This document shows, one piece after another, positions 1 through 8,862 of a stretch of DNA of 8,862 bases (the first letter of the stretch is position 1; every line of letters starts with the position of its first letter). Both the position numbers and the translations under genes were made by a program. Location of the stretch: positions 1-8,862 of IMG/VR virus record IMGVR_UViG_2537562091_000008; one strand, given 5' to 3'. A model generated the notes under the pieces. That model made no database searches, had not been told where the DNA came from, and was given only the letters and a program-made list of their open reading frames with translations. Source of the stretch: a virus. Lineage: Duplodnaviria; Heunggongvirae; Uroviricota; Caudoviricetes.

Positions 1-933
1 ATGGACAACGACAAAATTGATCAACACAGCGACGAAATTGAAGTTGAGAGCGAAGAAAAAGAGCGCGGCAAAAAAATAGAAATAGATGAAGACCGACTCC
101 CCTCCCGGGCGATGGCAATTCATGAGCATATCCGCCAGGATGGTGAAAAAGAGCTGGAACGCGACGCAATGGCGCTACTGTGGTCAGCCATTGCGGCGGG
201 TCTGTCGATGGGCGCTTCGTTACTGGCAAAAGGGATATTTCATGTCGAACTGGAAGGTGTGCCGGGCAGCTTCTTGCTGGAGAATCTCGGTTATACCTTT
301 GGTTTTATTATCGTCATTATGGCCCGCCAGCAATTATTTACCGAAAATACCGTGACTGCGGTACTACCCGTCATGCAAAAACCGACAATGAGCAACGTCG
401 GCTTACTTATACGGTTATGGGGCGTCGTGCTGCTGGGTAATATTCTCGGGACAGGTATTGCGGCGTGGGCATTTGAATATATGCCTATCTTCAATGAAGA
501 AACTCGCGATGCATTTGTCAAAATCGGCATGGATGTGATGAAGAACACCCCCAGCGAGATGTTTGCCAACGCGATCATTTCCGGCTGGCTGATCGCCACT
601 ATGGTTTGGATGTTTCCTGCAGCGGGTGCGGCAAAGATTGTGGTGATTATATTGATGACCTGGCTTATTGCCCTGGGTGACACCACCCATATCGTGGTCG
701 GTTCTGTTGAAATCCTCTATCTGGTGTTTAACGGTACGCTGCACTGGAGCGATTTCATCTGGCCCTTCGCACTACCTACTTTAGCGGGGAACATCTGCGG
801 CGGCACCTTTATCTTCGCGTTAATGAGTCATGCACAGATTCGTAACGACATGAGCAATAAGCGTAAAGCAGAAGCACGCCAAAAAGCAGAACGTGCGGAA
901 AACATTAAGAAAAATTATAAAAACCCGGCATAA
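1..933 (+). CDS. yfdC: Formate/nitrite transporter (FNT) family inner-membrane protein YfdC
   Basis: Complete 310-aa ORF, ATG at 1 to TAA at 931-933. Long hydrophobic segments typical of a polytopic membrane protein and a lysine-rich C-terminal tail. Sequence recognised from memory as E. coli YfdC, the gene immediately upstream of argW. Confidence 0.85.
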   Translation: MDNDKIDQHSDEIEVESEEKERGKKIEIDEDRLPSRAMAIHEHIRQDGEKELERDAMALLWSAIAAGLSMGASLLAKGIFHVELEGVPGSFLLENLGYTFGFIIVIMARQQLFTENTVTAVLPVMQKPTMSNVGLLIRLWGVVLLGNILGTGIAAWAFEYMPIFNEETRDAFVKIGMDVMKNTPSEMFANAIISGWLIATMVWMFPAAGAAKIVVIILMTWLIALGDTTHIVVGSVEILYLVFNGTLHWSDFIWPFALPTLAGNICGGTFIFALMSHAQIRNDMSNKRKAEARQKAERAENIKKNYKNPA

Positions 934-2402: not shown

Positions 2403-2411
2403 TGCCACCCA

Positions 2412-2729
2412 TCACACCACCACGCCATCCTGCAGCGCGCTGTTGATGAAGTACGTAACACGCCCCATCACCTCCACCTCTTCCGCCGCCTCCACTTCGA
2501 TCGCTTCACCATCATCCGTGATTAATGCCCTTCCCATCACTCTGGCAAATTGCGTTCTGCCGCCGGACAAAATCAGCAGAACCTGATTCTGAACCAGCCT
2601 GGTGCACGGCTGGGACGGAAGTCGCTGTCGTTCTCAAAATCGGTGGAGTTGCATGACAAAGTCATCGGGCATTATCTGAACATAAAACACTATCAGTAAG
2701 TTGGAGTCATTACCGACAATGCGCAGGAA
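2412..2729 (-). pseudogene. Decayed coding remnant convergent with intS (one in-frame TGA, no credible start codon)
   Basis: Minus-strand frame reads [31 protein letters not shown]-[TGA at 2634-2636][73 protein letters not shown], ending at TGA 2412-2414, only 10 bp from the intS stop. Protein-like composition, but interrupted and in a different frame from the ORF fragment upstream of it. Confidence 0.2.
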
Positions 2730-2899
2730 TCACGAAACTCGTTCAGATCAGGCTTATTACCATCGACTTTAACGGCAGTATTTGGCTTAAAATAAAAACC
2801 AGCGCCCCACCCGTTACCGCGCACTTCAATAATGGCAATGCTGTTAATTCATTTAACCTCTCCACCGTCAAATTTGAAAGCACCGCTTTCTGTTTTCAT
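2693..2899 (-). pseudogene. Small ORF interrupted by an in-frame TGA, translationally coupled to the upstream 61-aa ORF
   Basis: ATG at 2899-2897 lies 1 nt after the TAA of the 61-aa ORF and is preceded by GGAG (spacer about 10 nt). Reads MKTESGAFKFDGGEVK-[TGA 2849-2851][51 protein letters not shown], stop TGA at 2693-2695. Missed by the ORF track because of the internal stop. Confidence 0.3.
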
Positions 2900-2900
2900 T

Positions 2901-3086
2901 TTAATCATTCTCCGTAACAGGTTCATTGTGAGCAGCATTTAGTACTCGCTGGAGTGGCTGGTCATTTTCGCGATCTAATTCAGCCTGTAATGTATTCATT
3001 GAAGAATTAAAAGCAGGAACTTCATGACCGCTAAGATTTACGCGAAGCATAAACTGCATGATATTTTGAATAGTTTGCTTATCCAT
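2901..3086 (-). CDS. Hypothetical small acidic protein (61 aa) immediately downstream of the tailspike gene
   Basis: ORF MDKQTIQNIMQFMLRVNLSGHEVPAFNSSMNTLQAELDRENDQPLQRVLNAAHNEPVTEND. Good Shine-Dalgarno (AGGA, 7-nt spacer) before the ATG at 3086-3084. Starts 12 nt after the tailspike stop, consistent with co-transcription. No family recognised. Confidence 0.5.
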   Translation of the reverse strand: MDKQTIQNIMQFMLRVNLSGHEVPAFNSSMNTLQAELDRENDQPLQRVLNAAHNEPVTEND

Positions 3087-3098
3087 TTTATTGTCCTG

Positions 3099-4535
3099 TT
3101 AAGTTAAACCAATTAATCCATGCCCGGTTGAAGCATGTAAGTCCTGAATTAATGCTGCAACCACCTTTGCTAAATCTTCGTGAGTTATTGTTCCAGAGTT
3201 AAATGCTGCTCGGGATACGGTGCCGGTTGGCGATCCCCATCCCGTCCTCCTCTCTGAAATAACTTGATTGCCATTAAGTCGTATTCTTAAGTTGTTGAAG
3301 TTAGCCCAGTTTTCAGCCCTGTTGAAACTCAAATGTGTTGTATTTGCCGGGCCCGTTCCTACCGTAATTCGTTGATTGTCGCCCATCAAAATTGCGCAGT
3401 TGTTTGAAAATCCAGCTTCAGAAAATGAAATTCCACTCCTAAAATAATTTGTTCTAAATCTAATGCCGTTTGCAGCTCTAGATGATAGAGATCCCTCAAG
3501 TCTGATGTATTCGCCATTACCTACCTCGGTTAGTTCCTCTGTTGGAGTGGAAATAGAATTACCTCTAAACAACATTCCTGTCCAGATATAACCATTTGGA
3601 GCTTCACTCCCTCTTCCGATGGTAATCATCTGTGTTACTGGATTGCTTTTATCCTGAGTTACACATACCAACCCTCTTACAGATCCTTGCAGTGTATTCT
3701 CCATCCATCCTTTATCGGGACCTCGATTATTCAGATTAAATTCATGTGCAATAGTGCTAATCGCTCCATTCTGCACTGCATCTCCTAATACGGCACCATA
3801 TGACCACCCCCCCCATGTTTCGGCTTGCGGATTTCTTGATTCTCCACGCATGTGGTGACCAATTGAATGCCCATTCCCGCCCTCATGCTTAGCAACACTT
3901 GTAGTTGTGCATGTATATGCACTTCCTGACACCTTGCGCAAAGAGTTATAAATTACCCCCTGATCCCATCGTTTGATGCCGTCATCCCTAGTTGCAGAAC
4001 TAATTTTTTCCAGCCAAATAATGGGATCTGGAATTGGTGTTTCTGGTATGGAGAATCTCTGTCGTGTAGCATTTTTATATATGATAGTTTCATTGTTATA
4101 AATATTGTCACCAGCTGCATCTGAACCAGTCCATCCTGAGCCAGCATAAAAATTATTAAGTCCATCACCAGACTGTCCAGTCAAAACTACTCTTAACTGA
4201 TCCGGGTCATACTTCAGCACATTCGGAAAATAGAACTGATGCGCACCGTACGCATCATAAACAGCCATAGAATGGCCTTGCACGGTAACGAACTTGGCAA
4301 TCTGTCCGTTATATACCGGATATCCAGCAGCGTTAATGATGATTGGTTGAGAAACAGGAATGTGAGAACCGTCTTCGTTCTCTACATAAACCTGAATCTG
4401 GTTTTCAGGGTTTACCGGGTCAGTGTCAATTTTACCGATATAAATTTTGCCATTGGCTACGGCTTTAAAAGAACGAGCCATAGTGAAGAGTTGCGAAGGC
4501 ATGCTTACCACAACATTTGCGGTGATATCTGACAT
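3099..4535 (-). CDS. Phage tailspike protein: P22 gp9-like head-binding N-terminal domain fused to a divergent receptor-binding domain
   Basis: N-terminal ~115 aa ([97 protein letters not shown]...NVLKYDPDQ) align closely with the P22 tailspike head-binding domain as I recall it; the remaining ~360 aa are unrelated to the P22 endorhamnosidase body. Start set at ATG 4535-4533 (GGAG 7 nt upstream) rather than the upstream ATG at 4583. Visibly AT-rich relative to neighbours. Confidence 0.85.
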
Positions 4536-4656
4536 TTCATTGCTCCAGACGAATGATATGATGCAACCATGATGTGATTGCATACCGAAATGGTACTATT
4601 GAGTATTTATCCAGTAGGTTACGATGCCATTCCACCCAACTGGTGAGGCATCAAGG
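4536..4656. promoter_or_regulatory. Divergent control region between the tailspike and mnt genes, with a candidate operator (inverted repeat ATGCAA-N11-TTGCAT, 4561-4583)
   Basis: 121-bp gap between divergent start codons. Inverted repeat read directly. A plausible plus-strand promoter for mnt (-35 TTGCAT 4578-4583, 17-nt spacer, -10 GAGTAT 4601-4606) overlaps the repeat. Contains a TAGGT motif (4614-4618) that resembles part of the P22 mnt operator half-site as I recall it. Confidence 0.3.
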
Positions 4657-4923
4657 ATGTACAGCAAATACGACGAGGCGCAGTTTCACTTGAGACTTCC
4701 GCATGAACTCCACGCGAAAATTAAGCAGCGTGCGAAGATGAATAACAGGTCGCTGAACTCAGAGATAATTGCAGCGATTGAAGAATCATTGGCTAAACAA
4801 AGCTCTGCATCTGTTTACATTGACGATGCAGAGCGTATGGCAGAACAACAATCTGAGATGGTTAAGAAAATTGTCTTTGATACGCTTAAGACCATGTATA
4901 GCAATAATAAAAAGGAAACATAG
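4657..4923 (+). CDS. mnt: Mnt-like ribbon-helix-helix transcriptional repressor (P22 immI-type)
   Basis: 88-aa product MYSKYDEAQFHLRLPHELHAKIKQRAKMNNRSLNSEIIAAIEESLAKQSSASVYIDDAERMAEQQSEMVKKIVFDTLKTMYSNNKKET, closely parallel to P22 Mnt as recalled (FNFRMPMEVREKLKFRAEANGRSMNSELLQIVQDALSK ... NDAERLADEQSELVKKMVFDTLK). Alternative upstream ATG at 4624 would add 11 residues. Confidence 0.8.
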   Translation: MYSKYDEAQFHLRLPHELHAKIKQRAKMNNRSLNSEIIAAIEESLAKQSSASVYIDDAERMAEQQSEMVKKIVFDTLKTMYSNNKKET

Positions 4924-4993
4924 AAATCTAGTTTCCGGCTAAAATGGCATTGCCTTCATGATATCCTGTGAAAAACTAAGGAGAGTTAACCAT

Positions 4994-5479
4994 ATGAAAA
5001 AATCACTGTTAATTATCCCGCTTCTGCTGGTTGGATGCGCAAAAGTAAGTGACTATCAAGCAAGTTGCGAACAACGCTATCAAAAGCTTAGCGATATGGC
5101 TAATTGCCTTGATGCCAGTGTGAAGAACGACTCACGCATGGCATCAGCACCAACACCTAAGCTGTATGTCCTTGCTGCAAAGATGCTCGGGCAAGGTGTC
5201 GATGAAGGCAAGATAAGTGACGCACAGGCAAGACTTGAGCTTCAGAATCTTTATGTTCAATTACAAAGCCAAGAACAAGCCCAACAAATAGCACAAAGCC
5301 AAGCATTCCAGCAGGCTTTATTGAATTATCAGGCTGTAAACACAATGCAAGCGATCGAGCAAAAAGCGCGCCAGCCTGTTATAACTCAACCTTACCCAAC
5401 ACGCGTTGACACTTACACAAACTGCAATTCAGGGTTTGGAAATACAGTCACATGCAACAGTAGCAGTAACATCAGATAA
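4994..5479 (+). CDS. Prophage-encoded lipoprotein (candidate superinfection-exclusion / lysogenic-conversion protein)
   Basis: ATG at 4994 preceded by AAGGAG (4978-4983). N-terminus MKKSLLIIPLLLVGC is a type II signal peptide with lipobox LVGC; the residue after Cys is Ala. Mature part has a Cys-rich N-terminal segment, a Gln-rich predicted helical segment (QNLYVQLQSQEQAQQIAQSQAFQQALLNYQAVNTMQAIEQKARQ) and a C-terminal Cys pair. Same strand as and 70 bp downstream of mnt. Confidence 0.65.
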   Translation: MKKSLLIIPLLLVGCAKVSDYQASCEQRYQKLSDMANCLDASVKNDSRMASAPTPKLYVLAAKMLGQGVDEGKISDAQARLELQNLYVQLQSQEQAQQIAQSQAFQQALLNYQAVNTMQAIEQKARQPVITQPYPTRVDTYTNCNSGFGNTVTCNSSSNIR

Positions 5480-5569
5480 CAATCAGCAAAGGTATCGCCT
5501 ATGCAGAGGAATACGATAAACCTCGCGTTCTACATATTTGGTTTTTGCACGTTCCTGGTGTTTGAAAGG

Positions 5570-7567
5570 CTATTCTGACAACGAATCAGACTTAGCACCC
5601 TGCGTCAGTGCATTAATCGCTTTTTGCGCTTGCTGCATGGCTTTCTCAAACGCTGTCGATCCGCGTGGTGTGTTTGCCATTCGGAGCATTGCATTTCTGA
5701 ATGGTTCGCTCTCATAGGCGCGAGTAAGAAGTCCGTAGCTTACCGCTGCGCCAGTTGTCGCCGGGTTCATTGCTGTCCCATACCCGATAATGAACGGGAT
5801 GGTTTGCTGCCCTGTTGGTGTTGTTACTGCCGCTTTTGCAGCCTGCTGCGTGGATTGCAGGTAGTTTTTCAATCCTTTCAGATAAGCAGCGTCCTGCCCC
5901 TTAAATGTGATGCCAGTCTGGTTTTGCAGGATGTTAAGCTGTCGAAGGAACTGATCAGGGGAACCCCCTGATTTCTCCATCGCCTTTCCAATGATGCCAT
6001 TGCGCATTTGCGCCCTGCCAACACGACCAACTGAGTTATACAGCGTCTTAATTTCCGATTTGTTCTTGCTGAATAGCATGTTGTTGACAACTTCCGGCGT
6101 CAGATCGCCTTTCATGAGAACATTCTTCAGCCTGGTATTCTTTAGTTTCGCCGCTTCGTCAGCGTAGACGGCATTGGCCTGCTGATATTTACGGAGAGTA
6201 TCGTTGCCAAGATTCTGACCAATGGCACCATTGATATCGTCTGTCATCGCCTTGTAAACGCGCTGAATGGCAGCATCGGAACGGTTTGGTAACACTGGTC
6301 GTTCCCCCTTCACGTCCATTCTGAACTGGCTGCGCAGATCGCTTAATTGCTTCAAATCCAGATTTACCGGACCATCAGGACTAGCATTGCGAACAAGCTC
6401 ATCACGATAGGACTGAAGTTTTGAAATAGTCTCGTTATCAGCAACCTTACCAAGCTTCTGCAGGTTAGATATTTCTGTATCAATCTGCTGAATTGCTCGC
6501 GCAGGCTGAATGTTTACTCCAGCCATAGCATTCTGAACCTGCTCCAGTCGATTACCGGCGGCACGACGAATTCCTGATGTTTTCGCTTTAAGGCTGTCAA
6601 TAACAACCGCTGGATCATACTCGCCGAATTTATCAGCAAATCTCTGCACCAACTGACTTCTCGCTTCCTGTTGCGTTGCTCTCATTCCGCTTGTGCCAGC
6701 CAGGGGAATATTTTCTGCTGTAGTCTGCGCCATTTTCCCGACGCGGGAAGTAGGCTGTAACAGGTCTGTGGTGTGCAGAGGCACTCCTTCACGCTCTGCA
6801 AATCTGATAGCTTGCTGCGCTTCTGGTGCAATAGCACCACGAACGCCACGATAAGCAGCGCCTAATCCACGTCCGGCAGCGTTAATAGCGCCGCCAGCCA
6901 GAACGCCAACGCCTAAATCGGTGGCGAGTGCTTCCGCATCATCTTTCGCACTATTTGCAGCAAGTGATCCAACTGCGTTTTCTGCTAGAAGGCGAGTTGC
7001 CCCCTGAGCAATTCGACCAGCAAGTGTTGGTGCCTGTGTTGCCGCTCTCTCAACGCCAGCAGGAGTGAGGTAAGGCAATGCTTCAGCAAATACCCTTCCC
7101 TCTGTCGTTTGTGGAGTCAGCGCGCCTTGCTGAAGGCCAAAGTCCTGCTCTAATCCCTGCGTTGTTACTCGTGGTGCTGGTTGATATGTACCATCGCCAA
7201 TGCCGAGTTTACCGCCAGCCCAAGCCGCCGCGCTTGTTACAGCATCAGCAACTGATGCAGGTATATTTGCCACGTTCACGCCAGCCTGCACCAGTCCGCG
7301 ACCAGTCTCTTTTACTGCTTCGCCAAGATCAGACATAAATCCACTTTGCTGTGGTTGTTGCTGTGCTACTGGTTGCTGTGTCTCCACTGGCTGTACAGAT
7401 GGCAATGGATAGGCAGCATAGAAAGCTTGCTTAGCCTGCTCTGCATTTTCTCCGGCTTGCGGGGCCACGACTTCATTGAAGTATTGCTCCTGAGCTTGCG
7501 CTTTTTGTTCTGGTGCTAACGCCTGATACTGTGGAGAGGCGATAACATCTTTCCATGCTTTAGCCAT
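5570..7567 (-). CDS. Phage ejection (internal virion / DNA-transfer) protein, P22 gp16-like by position
   Basis: 665-aa ORF, the last gene of the late operon before the immunity/tailspike region, which is where gene 16 sits in P22-like genomes. Start ATG overlaps the upstream gene's stop (TAATG at 7565-7569). Long Ala/Gly/Gln-rich low-complexity segments. Assignment is by synteny and composition, not by recalled sequence identity. Confidence 0.55.
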   Translation of the reverse strand: MAKAWKDVIASPQYQALAPEQKAQAQEQYFNEVVAPQAGENAEQAKQAFYAAYPLPSVQPVETQQPVAQQQPQQSGFMSDLGEAVKETGRGLVQAGVNVANIPASVADAVTSAAAWAGGKLGIGDGTYQPAPRVTTQGLEQDFGLQQGALTPQTTEGRVFAEALPYLTPAGVERAATQAPTLAGRIAQGATRLLAENAVGSLAANSAKDDAEALATDLGVGVLAGGAINAAGRGLGAAYRGVRGAIAPEAQQAIRFAEREGVPLHTTDLLQPTSRVGKMAQTTAENIPLAGTSGMRATQQEARSQLVQRFADKFGEYDPAVVIDSLKAKTSGIRRAAGNRLEQVQNAMAGVNIQPARAIQQIDTEISNLQKLGKVADNETISKLQSYRDELVRNASPDGPVNLDLKQLSDLRSQFRMDVKGERPVLPNRSDAAIQRVYKAMTDDINGAIGQNLGNDTLRKYQQANAVYADEAAKLKNTRLKNVLMKGDLTPEVVNNMLFSKNKSEIKTLYNSVGRVGRAQMRNGIIGKAMEKSGGSPDQFLRQLNILQNQTGITFKGQDAAYLKGLKNYLQSTQQAAKAAVTTPTGQQTIPFIIGYGTAMNPATTGAAVSYGLLTRAYESEPFRNAMLRMANTPRGSTAFEKAMQQAQKAINALTQGAKSDSLSE

Positions 7568-8862
7568 TAATCACCCCATAGTGAAGAAAAATTACTGCCA
7601 GTAGTAGGTTGTTGCGCTGGCGTATTCTGTACTGGCTCCTGATAATCAAACTGTTTTTTAACAGTGCTCAACTTGCTTTCAAGCTGATTTCTAATCTTTC
7701 CGATAGAGTCACGAAAAGCCTTTTCACTCATTTTGGGGCTTAGGGCACCAACCGCATCGGATAATTTTTTACCCTCAGCATCTGAAAGAGCACCCATACC
7801 CTTCAGGGACTGCACCATAGGAAGGAATGTTTGAGCTTTAAAGGTGTCGAGCCTTGCTTCAAAGTTAGCCGCATCAGAGCCAGGAACTGTCGGAAACGCT
7901 GAGCGAATTCCTACTGCTTTTGAAAGGCCGGGGCTTTGCTCTATCTCGTTGAGAGAATCAAGCGCGGTGCTGAACGTATCAACTGCACCCTGAGCTGCGG
8001 CCTGCCTGTCAGCGCGGGCTATGTCAGCCTTTTGCCGAACATCTGCCTGTTTCTGTTTTAGCTCTTCAAGCTTTAACTGATTGCTTTCTCTGGCTATCTG
8101 TCTGTCCAGAGCCTTTTCTTGTAACTCTGCTCTTTGTATTTCTCGGGAAAGAGCAGCATTCTGTGCGCTGATGTTCTGTCCACGTATCTGGATGTCCTGA
8201 CCTCGAGCTGTTAGTGCTTCACCTGCCTGATTGCTGCGGATTGTCTCTGCCAGCCTGCCTCTGTCAATTTCACGACCAGCCATCTTGTCCTGAACATTGA
8301 AGTAATCAATCGGACCAAGCGCAGCCATCCCAAGGTGATCAACAAACTCACCAAATCCTGAAGGATTCTGCTGATACATCTGAGCAACGTTGTTAGGGTC
8401 AACAGCGACGCGCGCCAGTTCCTTGGCGTTATTTTGCAGCCACGATTGCATTGCTTCTGGAGATGAGGCCGCAAGGCGTGCGCCAGCCGCTAAGGTGCCG
8501 ATAGAATTACGCTGGTCTTCATCAATGAATCCCATGCCTTTACGAACGGATTCAATCTGGTCTGGATATTGAGTAGCCAACTGACGCAAAGCACCGCGAT
8601 CACCAGACGCATAAGCATTAGCGTACGCCTGCTGGAATTCTTTCTTCCGCTGAGCCTGCTTCTCCTGCTGAAACACCCCCGCAATACCTGAAAGGCCTTG
8701 CAAAGCAGTCAGCCCAACATTGTTAGCGCCTGAACGCTCAATATCATTGTTCTGCCTGATAAGCTGAAGCGTGTTGCCGATGTCATTTACGCTCGGAGCG
8801 TTTGAGTTGACACCACCGATACCAGCCAACAATCCGCCATTTGTTCCTTGCCAAGTAGCCAT
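7567..8862 (-). CDS. Phage ejection protein, P22 gp20-like by position (start coincides with window edge; may be 5'-truncated)
   Basis: 431-aa ORF beginning MATWQGTNGG exactly at the window boundary, immediately upstream of and coupled to the gp16-like gene. Contains a charged predicted coiled-coil segment (AQNAALSREIQRAELQEKALDRQIARESNQLKLEELKQKQADVRQKADIARADRQ). Confidence 0.5.
   Translation of the reverse strand: MATWQGTNGGLLAGIGGVNSNAPSVNDIGNTLQLIRQNNDIERSGANNVGLTALQGLSGIAGVFQQEKQAQRKKEFQQAYANAYASGDRGALRQLATQYPDQIESVRKGMGFIDEDQRNSIGTLAAGARLAASSPEAMQSWLQNNAKELARVAVDPNNVAQMYQQNPSGFGEFVDHLGMAALGPIDYFNVQDKMAGREIDRGRLAETIRSNQAGEALTARGQDIQIRGQNISAQNAALSREIQRAELQEKALDRQIARESNQLKLEELKQKQADVRQKADIARADRQAAAQGAVDTFSTALDSLNEIEQSPGLSKAVGIRSAFPTVPGSDAANFEARLDTFKAQTFLPMVQSLKGMGALSDAEGKKLSDAVGALSPKMSEKAFRDSIGKIRNQLESKLSTVKKQFDYQEPVQNTPAQQPTTGSNFSSLWGD

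Follow-up and report, generated by a model that had tools for sequence, protein, structure and literature searches.

In the window, by which we mean the whole stretch of 8,862 nucleotides that was analysed, two large open reading frames lie on the minus strand, as the initial annotation had read them. One encodes 431 amino acids (7567..8862), and the window stops at its start codon; the other, directly downstream of it, encodes 665 amino acids (5570..7567). From the reading frames and their homology, the former is the gene for a gp12 or P22-gp20-type ejection protein, and the latter the gene for a gp13 or P22-gp16-type ejection ('DNA transfer') protein. The one-base overlap that had been described between them is present: the minus-strand letters from 7569 to 7565 read TAATG, in which the final base of the gp12 stop codon (TAA) is also the first of the gp13 start codon (ATG; 7565..7569, minus strand). 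Both reading frames are intact at full length and have no frameshift relative to Shigella phage Sf6.

The DNA from 5570 to 8862 is 96.9% identical to genes 13 and 12 of Sf6 over all 3293 bases. Both encoded proteins align with their Sf6 counterparts over the full length and without gaps, with 423 of 431 residues identical to gp12 (98%) and 657 of 665 identical to gp13 (99%). In the Sf6 annotation, gp12 and gp13 are putative proteins of DNA injection and are noted to resemble gp20 and gp16 of P22. The 431-aa protein contains the Pfam domain Inj_translocase (PF16928, the P22 gp20 family; E = 1.7e-76, 257.2 bits with a cut-off of 29.7) at aa 10-225 (8188..8835, minus strand), the part common to P22 gp20, and the match covers profile positions 1-217 of 218. 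It also matches phrog_2534 over its full length (E = 1.8e-214); no NCBIfam match was found for it. The profile search placed the 665-aa protein in PHROG 770, 'DNA transfer protein' (E = 1.7e-239; aa 19-665, profile positions 3-666 of 668); the local copies of Pfam (E <= 0.01) and NCBIfam gave no match for it, and near-identical database proteins carry PF26808. In BLASTP searches, gp12 was 49% identical to P22 gp20 (E = 4e-69) in the N-terminal 245-250 residues or so only, and gp13 was 34% identical to P22 gp16 over 582 aligned positions (E = 4e-79; aa 82-654). Thus the gp20-like and gp16-like pair, originally called from position and composition, is confirmed by the protein searches against P22 and Sf6. 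The suggestion of a less familiar lineage of injection proteins does not hold, since the sequences are of the Sf6 type, among the best-studied P22-like phages. We estimate a probability of roughly 94% that the pair are orthologues of Sf6 genes 12 and 13 (P22 genes 20 and 16), lying in a P22-like prophage and having a role in ejection.

Homology to tape-measure or tail-fibre proteins had been named beforehand as the result that would speak against this identification. Both proteins are long, helix-rich and biased toward Ala, Gly and Gln, like many tape-measure proteins, so that tape-measure, tail-fibre or other tail-structure proteins might by their composition mimic ejection proteins. However, no tape-measure or tail-fibre family was matched in Pfam, PHROGs or NCBIfam, the identity to Sf6 gp12 and gp13 extends over the full length, and the phage is of the short-tailed, P22-like podovirus type with a tailspike. 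To our knowledge, short-tailed P22-like podoviruses have no tape measure. We regard the chance that the two genes encode tail-structure proteins as negligible.

The pair belongs to a P22-like prophage of Lederbergvirus type, inserted into an Escherichia/Shigella-type chromosome at a tRNA-Arg gene (argW) that yfdC and intS adjoin. In Sf6 and in an Escherichia coli H3 prophage, the gene order is gp7-like, gp20-like, gp16-like and tailspike, with the integrase beside argW/yfdC; in both, the gp7-type gene lies 9 nt upstream of the gp12-type gene. The prophage part within the window is the right arm only, and it includes the integrase, argW, a Mnt-like repressor and an intact tailspike open reading frame with the head-binding domain (3099-4535). 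A remnant of IS1 and small broken open reading frames are found between int and the tailspike, and in a related strain, EF5-18-41, the tailspike and gene 20 are both pseudogenised. A PADLOC search with four neighbouring open reading frames (the lipoprotein, the Mnt-like repressor and two small ones) gave no matches.

One possible reading of this context accepts the identification of the genes but assigns them to a prophage remnant that is decaying and cannot be induced, so that they no longer act in any infection. The IS1 fragment with its broken neighbours, the pseudogenes of EF5-18-41 and the visibility of the right arm alone would fit such decay. However, both ejection genes are full-length, 98-99% identical to those of Sf6 and free of frameshifts, the tailspike frame is intact, and the integrase, argW and the repressor are present. 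Decay of this prophage is therefore rather unlikely in our judgement, although it deserves some weight.

The junction between the two genes is neither peculiar to this copy nor due to chance. The TAATG arrangement is also found in Sf6, in genes 20 and 16 of P22 and in a prophage of E. coli H3, and it is kept in 75 of the 76 evaluable related viral contigs of IMG/VR. A Shine-Dalgarno-like sequence, GGGGTGAT, lies in the last codons of gp12 (W-G-D; 7570..7577, minus strand, within the sequence TGGGGTGATTAATGG) and ends 2 nt before the ATG of gp13. Its GGTGAT motif is complementary to the 3' end of 16S rRNA, is conserved among the IMG/VR relatives and, judged by its sequence, may function in ribosome binding. 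A stop/start overlap and a ribosome-binding-like sequence inside the upstream gene are thus both present, a layout that is usual in translational coupling. By analogy with what is generally known of overlapping genes, translation of gene 13 is most likely coupled to termination of gene 12 through the TAATG and GGTGAT sequences. A scan of 4500-8862 for promoters and terminators gave no more sites than shuffled sequences, and none between the two genes.

An N-terminal extension of the 431-aa reading frame, which the initial annotation had considered, can be dismissed: Sf6 gp12 is likewise 431 aa long, starting MATWQG, and related loci have a stop codon usually 3 and at most 17 codons upstream of the start. 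The most hydrophobic segment of gp12 is aa 46-64 (ANNVGLTALQGLSGIAGVF; 8671..8727, minus strand; top Kyte-Doolittle window), which is aligned with residues of about 48-66 of P22 gp20. Hydrophobic residues 51-66 of P22 gp20 are embedded in the outer membrane (bioRxiv 10.64898/2026.09.03.749273). Farther along the protein, AlphaFold2 predicted a single long helix of 108 residues at aa 201-308 (7939..8262, minus strand). The N-terminal part of this helix aligns with the PP2 helical barrel of P22 gp20, residues 186-255, which form a 12-helix periplasmic barrel in a dodecamer in situ (bioRxiv 10.64898/2026.09.03.749273).

The predicted helix holds the charged segment at aa 225-286 (nt 8007-8190) that the initial annotation had taken for a charged coiled coil. 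The charge is real (37% charged residues vs 20% elsewhere in gp12), and a run of 63 residues at aa 229-291 is free of Pro and Gly; however, no 28-residue window of gp12 shows canonical heptads in which seven or more of the eight a/d positions are hydrophobic, and 'long charged helix' is a better description than 'coiled coil'. Similarly, the stretch of gp13 at aa 100-260 (nt 6790-7270), which had been called Ala/Gly/Gln-rich, is rich in Ala (23.6%) and Gly (13.7%), together 37% vs 20% in the remaining protein, but not in Gln (6.2% vs 10.3% elsewhere); it is at aa 1-99 that gp13 is rich in Gln (18%). Low complexity, said to be extensive, does not exceed expectation. By a SEG-like criterion of entropy <= 2.2 bits in windows of 12 residues, 41 of 665 residues of gp13 and 27 of 431 of gp12 were scored, and shuffles of the same composition reached these counts in 34% and 21% of trials, respectively. 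What distinguishes the segments in gp13 (aa 100-260) and gp12 (aa 225-286) is compositional bias only.

The AlphaFold2 models of both proteins are all-helical, with mean pLDDT of 60 (gp12) and 51 (gp13), i.e. low confidence. The underlying alignments were shallow, because the homologues listed were 78-99% or at least 98% identical, and only secondary structure was used. In the 108-residue helix of gp12, pLDDT is below 50 over aa 198-221 and about 58-79 from aa 221. In gp13, the helices of aa 1-54 have pLDDT of 69-85 and those of aa 320-575 about 55-86, and the Ala/Gly-rich third lies below 50. A PDB sequence search with both proteins gave no match at E <= 0.01, and the best Foldseek hits of the models in the PDB (E = 0.36 for gp12 and 0.048 for gp13, with TM-scores near 0.1) were discarded as meaningless. 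Since the sequence search was empty, the models are of low confidence and Foldseek gave no significant match, our structural statements rest on homology to P22, which for gp12 covers the N-terminal 250 residues or so only. The modelled all-helical gp12 monomer with its 108-residue helix is consistent with assembly into a tube.

Three parts can be told apart in gp13. The first is a separable N-terminal helical module, aa 1-54 (MAKAWKDVIASPQYQ...; 7406..7567, minus strand), recognised by allele comparison and in the AlphaFold2 model; it is 94-98% identical in gene-16 alleles that are otherwise unrelated or have a 98-aa insertion (L038, L054, L074). The second, evident from composition and hydropathy, is the Ala/Gly-rich region at aa about 77-250 (6818..7339, minus strand), which is strongly conserved in homologues of 78-99% identity and aligns, with gaps, with aa 69-200 of P22 gp16. 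It includes the most hydrophobic segment of gp13, aa 213-231 (ALATDLGVGVLAGGAINAA), which has small-xxx-small motifs, is rich in Gly and Ala and has a moderate mean hydropathy of 1.36. The third is the C-terminal helical core at aa about 251-665 (5573..6817, minus strand), delimited by family matches and AlphaFold2. The gp13 family comprises 1201 clusters at 50% identity. Within the gp16 family this core is conserved more widely than any other part, and most of the distant representatives match gp13 from about aa 170-250 to about 660. Alleles that share the N-terminal third of gp13 but have unrelated C-termini also exist.

The names in databases would suggest another function for the 665-aa protein, i.e. 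a lytic transglycosylase that cuts peptidoglycan at infection. Most of the near-identical database proteins bear the RefSeq name 'lytic transglycosylase domain-containing protein', T7 gp16 has such a domain (PMC8954989), phrog_29864 'transglycosylase' matches gp13 at aa 163-384, and an SLT domain is indeed present in a sibling allele of 797 aa (PF01464, E = 2.7e-25, aa 7-110). This gene-16 allele, found in E. coli prophages (e.g. P0032), is 97% identical to gp13 of the window over aa 73-665. However, this allele carries its SLT domain on an N-terminal module of 204 aa, in place of which the window gp13 has a 72-aa segment rich in Gln, Ala and Pro. In the 665-aa protein no SLT domain was found, nor any other match in Pfam (E <= 0.01) or NCBIfam, and the phrog_29864 match falls on the common part outside the SLT module. 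Because the 665-aa protein is without the SLT module and the phrog_29864 match is on the non-SLT part, it appears that the RefSeq name spread from the longer allele. We consider it very improbable that gp13 of the window is a transglycosylase, and retain its identification as an ejection protein of the P22 gp16 type.

The allele comparison also shows a conserved block across the gene boundary. It runs from the final codons of gene 12 (..LWGD) through the TAATG into gene 13, of which it takes in the N-terminal module of 54 codons, and it stays 94-98% identical even where the remaining gene 13 is unrelated or bears an insertion. A tentative explanation, which we think possible but would not favour, is that this block is a 'linker' with two jobs: a patch of homology for swaps of whole gene-16 alleles among P22-like phages, and a common docking or packaging helix that joins differing gp16 bodies to one gp12. 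If true, this would refine the known mosaicism of genes 20 and 16 and not reveal a new kind of system.

Genes 12 and 13 would be read from one late transcript. By homology with P22 and Sf6, both proteins would be carried within the phage head and leave it through the tail when a cell is infected. The N-terminus of gp12 may insert into the gp7/gp11 pore in the outer membrane, and gp12 would then span the periplasm as an all-helical tube of several subunits, of which the helix of aa 201-308 would be a part. At the cytoplasmic membrane, gp13, docked on the C-terminal end of gp12, would complete the conduit for DNA entry. Both the assembly of the channel and its location in the membranes are inferred from work on these two phages. 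In P22, gp7*, gp20 and gp16 form a trans-envelope channel of about 50 nm in situ (bioRxiv 10.64898/2026.09.03.749273), and gp16 associates with membranes, as summarised elsewhere (PMC10461980). In gp13 of the window, the one feature in favour of such association is the moderately hydrophobic segment at aa 213-231. Sf6 gp12 forms in vitro a tube with a 25-Å channel, a decamer (PMC4755594). The oligomeric state is thus disputed, with a decamer in vitro for Sf6 gp12 and a dodecamer in situ for P22 gp20.

The identification is correct but ordinary, because the genes are near-identical copies of Sf6 genes 12 and 13 and the pair is already known. It matters little beyond annotation, where the proper label is Sf6-type gp12 and gp13 ejection proteins in a P22-like prophage at argW. 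The name common in RefSeq, 'lytic transglycosylase domain-containing protein', misleads in the case of the 665-aa allele, since this allele is without the SLT domain. The organisation of gene 13 into a conserved N-terminal module of 54 aa, a third rich in Ala and Gly, and an exchangeable C-terminal core fits current ideas of gp16 docking on the C-terminal end of gp20, and these modules could help in choosing constructs with which to study the structure of the P22/Sf6 DNA channel at its inner-membrane end.

Among known systems, T7 gp15 and gp16 are analogous in function and position. In an ejection operon of three genes they are the middle and the large protein, and they make up a tunnel through the periplasm and a part at the inner membrane or in the cytoplasm (PMC8954989). 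They are much longer, 747 and 1318 aa compared with 431 and 665 aa, and BLASTP detected no similarity (best E = 0.81 for gp12 vs gp15 and 2.1 for gp13 vs gp16); the transglycosylase domain of T7 gp16 (PMC8954989) has no counterpart at the N-terminus of the window gp13. P22 genes 20 and 16 occupy the same position in the late operon and have the same one-base TAATG overlap. Their products differ in length from those of the window (471 vs 431 aa for gp20, 609 vs 665 aa for gp16), and no BLAST similarity was found between P22 gp20 and the C-terminal 180 residues or so of gp12, or between P22 gp16 and about the first 80 residues of gp13; mosaicism of the ejection genes of P22-like phages is already known (PMC10461980). 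The closest system is Sf6 (NC_005344, Sf6p12 and Sf6p13), in which the lengths of 431 and 665 aa, the TAATG junction with its flanking bases and the gene order relative to the tailspike and integrase are all the same, and each protein differs by 8 amino-acid substitutions. Outside the pair, the tailspike gene of Sf6 follows gene 13 after 165 bp, whereas in the window the tailspike gene and gene 13 are separated by the genes for the Mnt-like repressor and the lipoprotein; oac, which Sf6 has, is absent from the window.

The 3293-base region formed by gene 13 (665 codons, 5570-7567, minus strand) and gene 12 (431 codons, 7567-8862, minus strand) was 96.9% identical to genes 13 and 12 of Shigella phage Sf6 over its entire length. 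In gap-free alignments, 657 of the 665 residues of gp13 and 423 of the 431 residues of gp12 were identical to those of the Sf6 proteins. Pfam PF16928 ("DNA/protein translocase of phage P22 injectosome", 257 bits) matched gp12 at aa 10-225, and phrog_2534 matched it end to end; gp13 was matched end to end by phrog_770 ("DNA transfer protein", E=1.7e-239), and the newer Pfam PF26808 was found on near-identical database relatives of gp13. The initial annotation had proposed a gp20-like and gp16-like ejection pair, and the 98-99% identity to Sf6 together with the family profiles shows that this was correct. The idea that the pair could belong to a less familiar lineage is refuted, because both proteins are of the Sf6 sequence type at this identity. 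The ejection gene pair is an already known feature. In Salmonella phage P22, gp20 is 49% identical to gp12 over aa 1-250, with no alignment further on, and gp16 is 34% identical to gp13 over aa 82-654. Both families are large, with thousands of word-sharing homologues each; for gp13, homologues at E<=1e-3 form 1201 clusters (50% identity). Tape-measure or fibre identity was also considered and rejected, such families having appeared in none of the profile libraries searched. In NCBI nr, the legacy name "acyltransferase" persists beside "phage DNA ejection protein" on many proteins near-identical to gp12; this name is unrelated, and probably an annotation carry-over.

The overlap of the two genes noticed previously is real. 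The bases read directly at 7569-7565 of the minus strand are TAATG, in which TAA closes the 431-codon open reading frame and the shared A opens the ATG of the 665-codon frame. Directly upstream, GGGGTGAT lies at 7577-7570, within the last Trp-Gly-Asp codons of gene 12. GGTGAT can base-pair with the 16S rRNA 3' end, and the arrangement is therefore of the classical translational-coupling type; judging from the sequence, translation of gene 13 would be coupled to that of gene 12. The bases of the Sf6 junction are identical, a prophage of E. coli H3 has the same one-base overlap, and the junction of P22 genes 20 and 16 reads GAATAATGAAA. When 80 related IMG/VR loci were compared, TAATG with TGGGGTGA before it was present in 75 of the 76 evaluable ones, the lone exception being ATGA, a four-base overlap. 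The junction is common to other copies and is no peculiarity of the window's own. An N-terminal extension of the 431-aa frame, which had been suggested as well, is unneeded, since Sf6 gp12 is also 431 aa long and begins MATWQG; in related loci, a stop codon mostly lies 3 codons upstream of the gp12 start, and 17 at most.

Comparison with the gene-16 alleles (variants of P22 gene 16 or Sf6 gene 13) downstream of gene 12 in related loci divided gene 13 into three separable parts. Residues 1-54 keep an identity of 94-98% even to an otherwise unrelated 828-aa allele, and also to 759-aa alleles in which a 98-aa insertion follows them immediately. Residues 1-244 are 42-62% identical to alleles whose C-termini are unrelated, and most distant family members have in common the core at the C-terminus, from about aa 250 to 665. 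Furthermore, a frequent allele of E. coli prophages, 797 aa long, is 97% identical to gp13 from aa 73 on, and its N-terminus is a 204-aa module with an SLT transglycosylase domain (proteins P0032-P0075; compare window 7352-7567). The existence of this allele explains why the 665-aa proteins are labelled "lytic transglycosylase domain-containing" in RefSeq, although no SLT domain was detectable in the 665-aa gp13 by Pfam. A sharply conserved block spans the junction of genes 12 and 13 and extends to codon 54 of gene 13. It may be a linker for recombination or a docking module in common use, or it may be both; this block is the only mildly new angle. In three 782-aa database proteins (P0026, P0028 and P0030), a P22_gp7 domain (aa 1-208) runs straight into the gp13 body (identity 98-99% at 89% query coverage), the arrangement that an in-frame loss of gene 12 would leave. 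Defective prophages, or errors of assembly, could account for them.

With regard to composition, the Ala/Gly bias of gp13 and the charge of gp12 described in the initial annotation were borne out; the Gln enrichment and the coiled-coil heptads were not, and "low complexity" was an overstatement. In gp13, aa 100-260 contain 23.6% Ala and 13.7% Gly (Ala plus Gly 37%, versus 20% elsewhere), whereas Gln (6.2%) is below the 10.3% of the remainder, the Gln-rich part being aa 1-99 (18%). In gp12, 37% of aa 225-286 are charged, versus 20% elsewhere, within a 63-residue stretch free of Pro and Gly, and no strong heptad pattern was found across gp12 windows. A SEG-like criterion marked 41 of 665 residues in gp13 and 27 of 431 in gp12, numbers equalled in 34% and 21%, respectively, of shuffles with the same composition as each protein. 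The Ala/Gly-rich region is near-invariant among homologues of 78-99% identity. Given the SEG-like, heptad and composition results, the segments are compositionally biased and conserved, not low-complexity filler.

According to the ORF map and tRNA scan, the window runs from a chromosomal junction into a prophage's right arm: yfdC (1-933, plus strand), argW, a tRNA-Arg(CCT) gene (1009-1083, plus), and an IntS-type integrase gene (1209-2402, plus) precede a tailspike gene, a repressor gene, a lipoprotein gene and the two ejection genes. The H3 prophage is annotated with this layout at the identical chromosomal site, running on into gp7-like, gp14-like, needle and gp10 genes, as is Sf6 with the same continuation. 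The whole window was found in one piece in none of the complete E. coli genomes (best, about 80% coverage at 97.7%); its segments match different E. coli strains, and thus the prophage arm combines modules known separately elsewhere into a mosaic. The 2403-3098 gap between int and tailspike holds an IS1 3'-end remnant (about 2550-2699, plus), which accounts for thousands of E. coli matches there; for the homologous stretch, the annotation of strain EF5-18-41 gives a partial IS1 transposase. Sf6 has oac at this site and P22 has gtrABC. A small ORF beside the remnant (2693-2899) has a stop codon in the window and is intact in EF5-18-41. The tailspike gene (3099-4535, minus) encodes a short protein, 478 aa from its MSDITANVV start, with a standard P22-type head-binding domain (Pfam PF09008, E=2e-66). 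Megablast found no phage match for its receptor-binding part (especially 3099-4185), and beyond aa ~119 nothing in the PDB matched by sequence; at >=80% query coverage this part occurs in only 3 of the 5426 complete E. coli genomes, two more genomes match it in part, and the homologous gene in EF5-18-41 is annotated as a pseudogene. The 99-aa product of 4624-4923 (plus), an Arc/Mnt-type repressor gene, has both an Arc-like ribbon-helix-helix domain and an Mnt C-terminal domain and is therefore an immI-type Mnt repressor; unlike in P22, it has no arc or ant gene beside it. A 161-aa predicted lipoprotein (MKKSLLIIPLLLVGC..., phrog_6067, function unknown) is encoded at 4994-5479 (plus), in the position that sieA has in P22, between the homologues of gene 16 and the tailspike gene. 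It had no similarity to P22 SieA and no match in PADLOC or Pfam; a few P22-like phages (Gally, VSe13 and a Proteus phage) encode homologues. Its function could be a different kind of exclusion expressed from the prophage.

T7 gp15 and gp16 have an equal place and role in the T7 ejection operon (PMC8954989). Pairwise similarity of gp12 and gp13 to them was not detected, and within the reach of the tools used the two pairs are analogues. The mode of action of gp12 and gp13 would be carried over from P22 and Sf6. The tube that purified Sf6 gp12 forms has a channel of 25 Å (PMC4755594). For P22, cryo-EM in situ showed that gp7*, gp20 and gp16 assemble sequentially into a ~50-nm trans-envelope channel, with the gp20 N-terminus inside the gp7 pore, residues 51-66 as a hydrophobic helix in the outer membrane, residues 186-255 as a periplasm-crossing 12-helix barrel, and a C-terminal "plinth" abutting the cytoplasmic membrane, at which gp16 supplies the rest of the channel; the authors also argued that in vivo the Sf6 protein gp12 probably has twelve subunits, the in vitro decamer being too short for the periplasm (bioRxiv 10.64898/2026.09.03.749273). 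P22 gp16, as summarised in PMC10461980, binds membranes and helps DNA to enter liposomes. The features of the window map onto this picture. The AlphaFold2 model of gp13 (mean pLDDT 51) has confident helices only at aa 1-52 and moderate confidence at aa 320-575; aa 58-316, which include the Ala/Gly-rich third, are below pLDDT 50. This third has numerous small-xxx-small motifs, and hydrophobicity in gp13 peaks within it (aa 213-231, ALATDLGVGVLAGGAINAA); the low-pLDDT pattern would suit a segment that folds only once assembled and membrane-associated. The model of gp12, of modest confidence (mean pLDDT 60), is all-helical. The most hydrophobic stretch of gp12, aa 46-64, aligns with the outer-membrane helix of P22 gp20, and a single predicted helix, aa 201-308, includes the supposed coiled coil and overlaps the barrel segment of P22.
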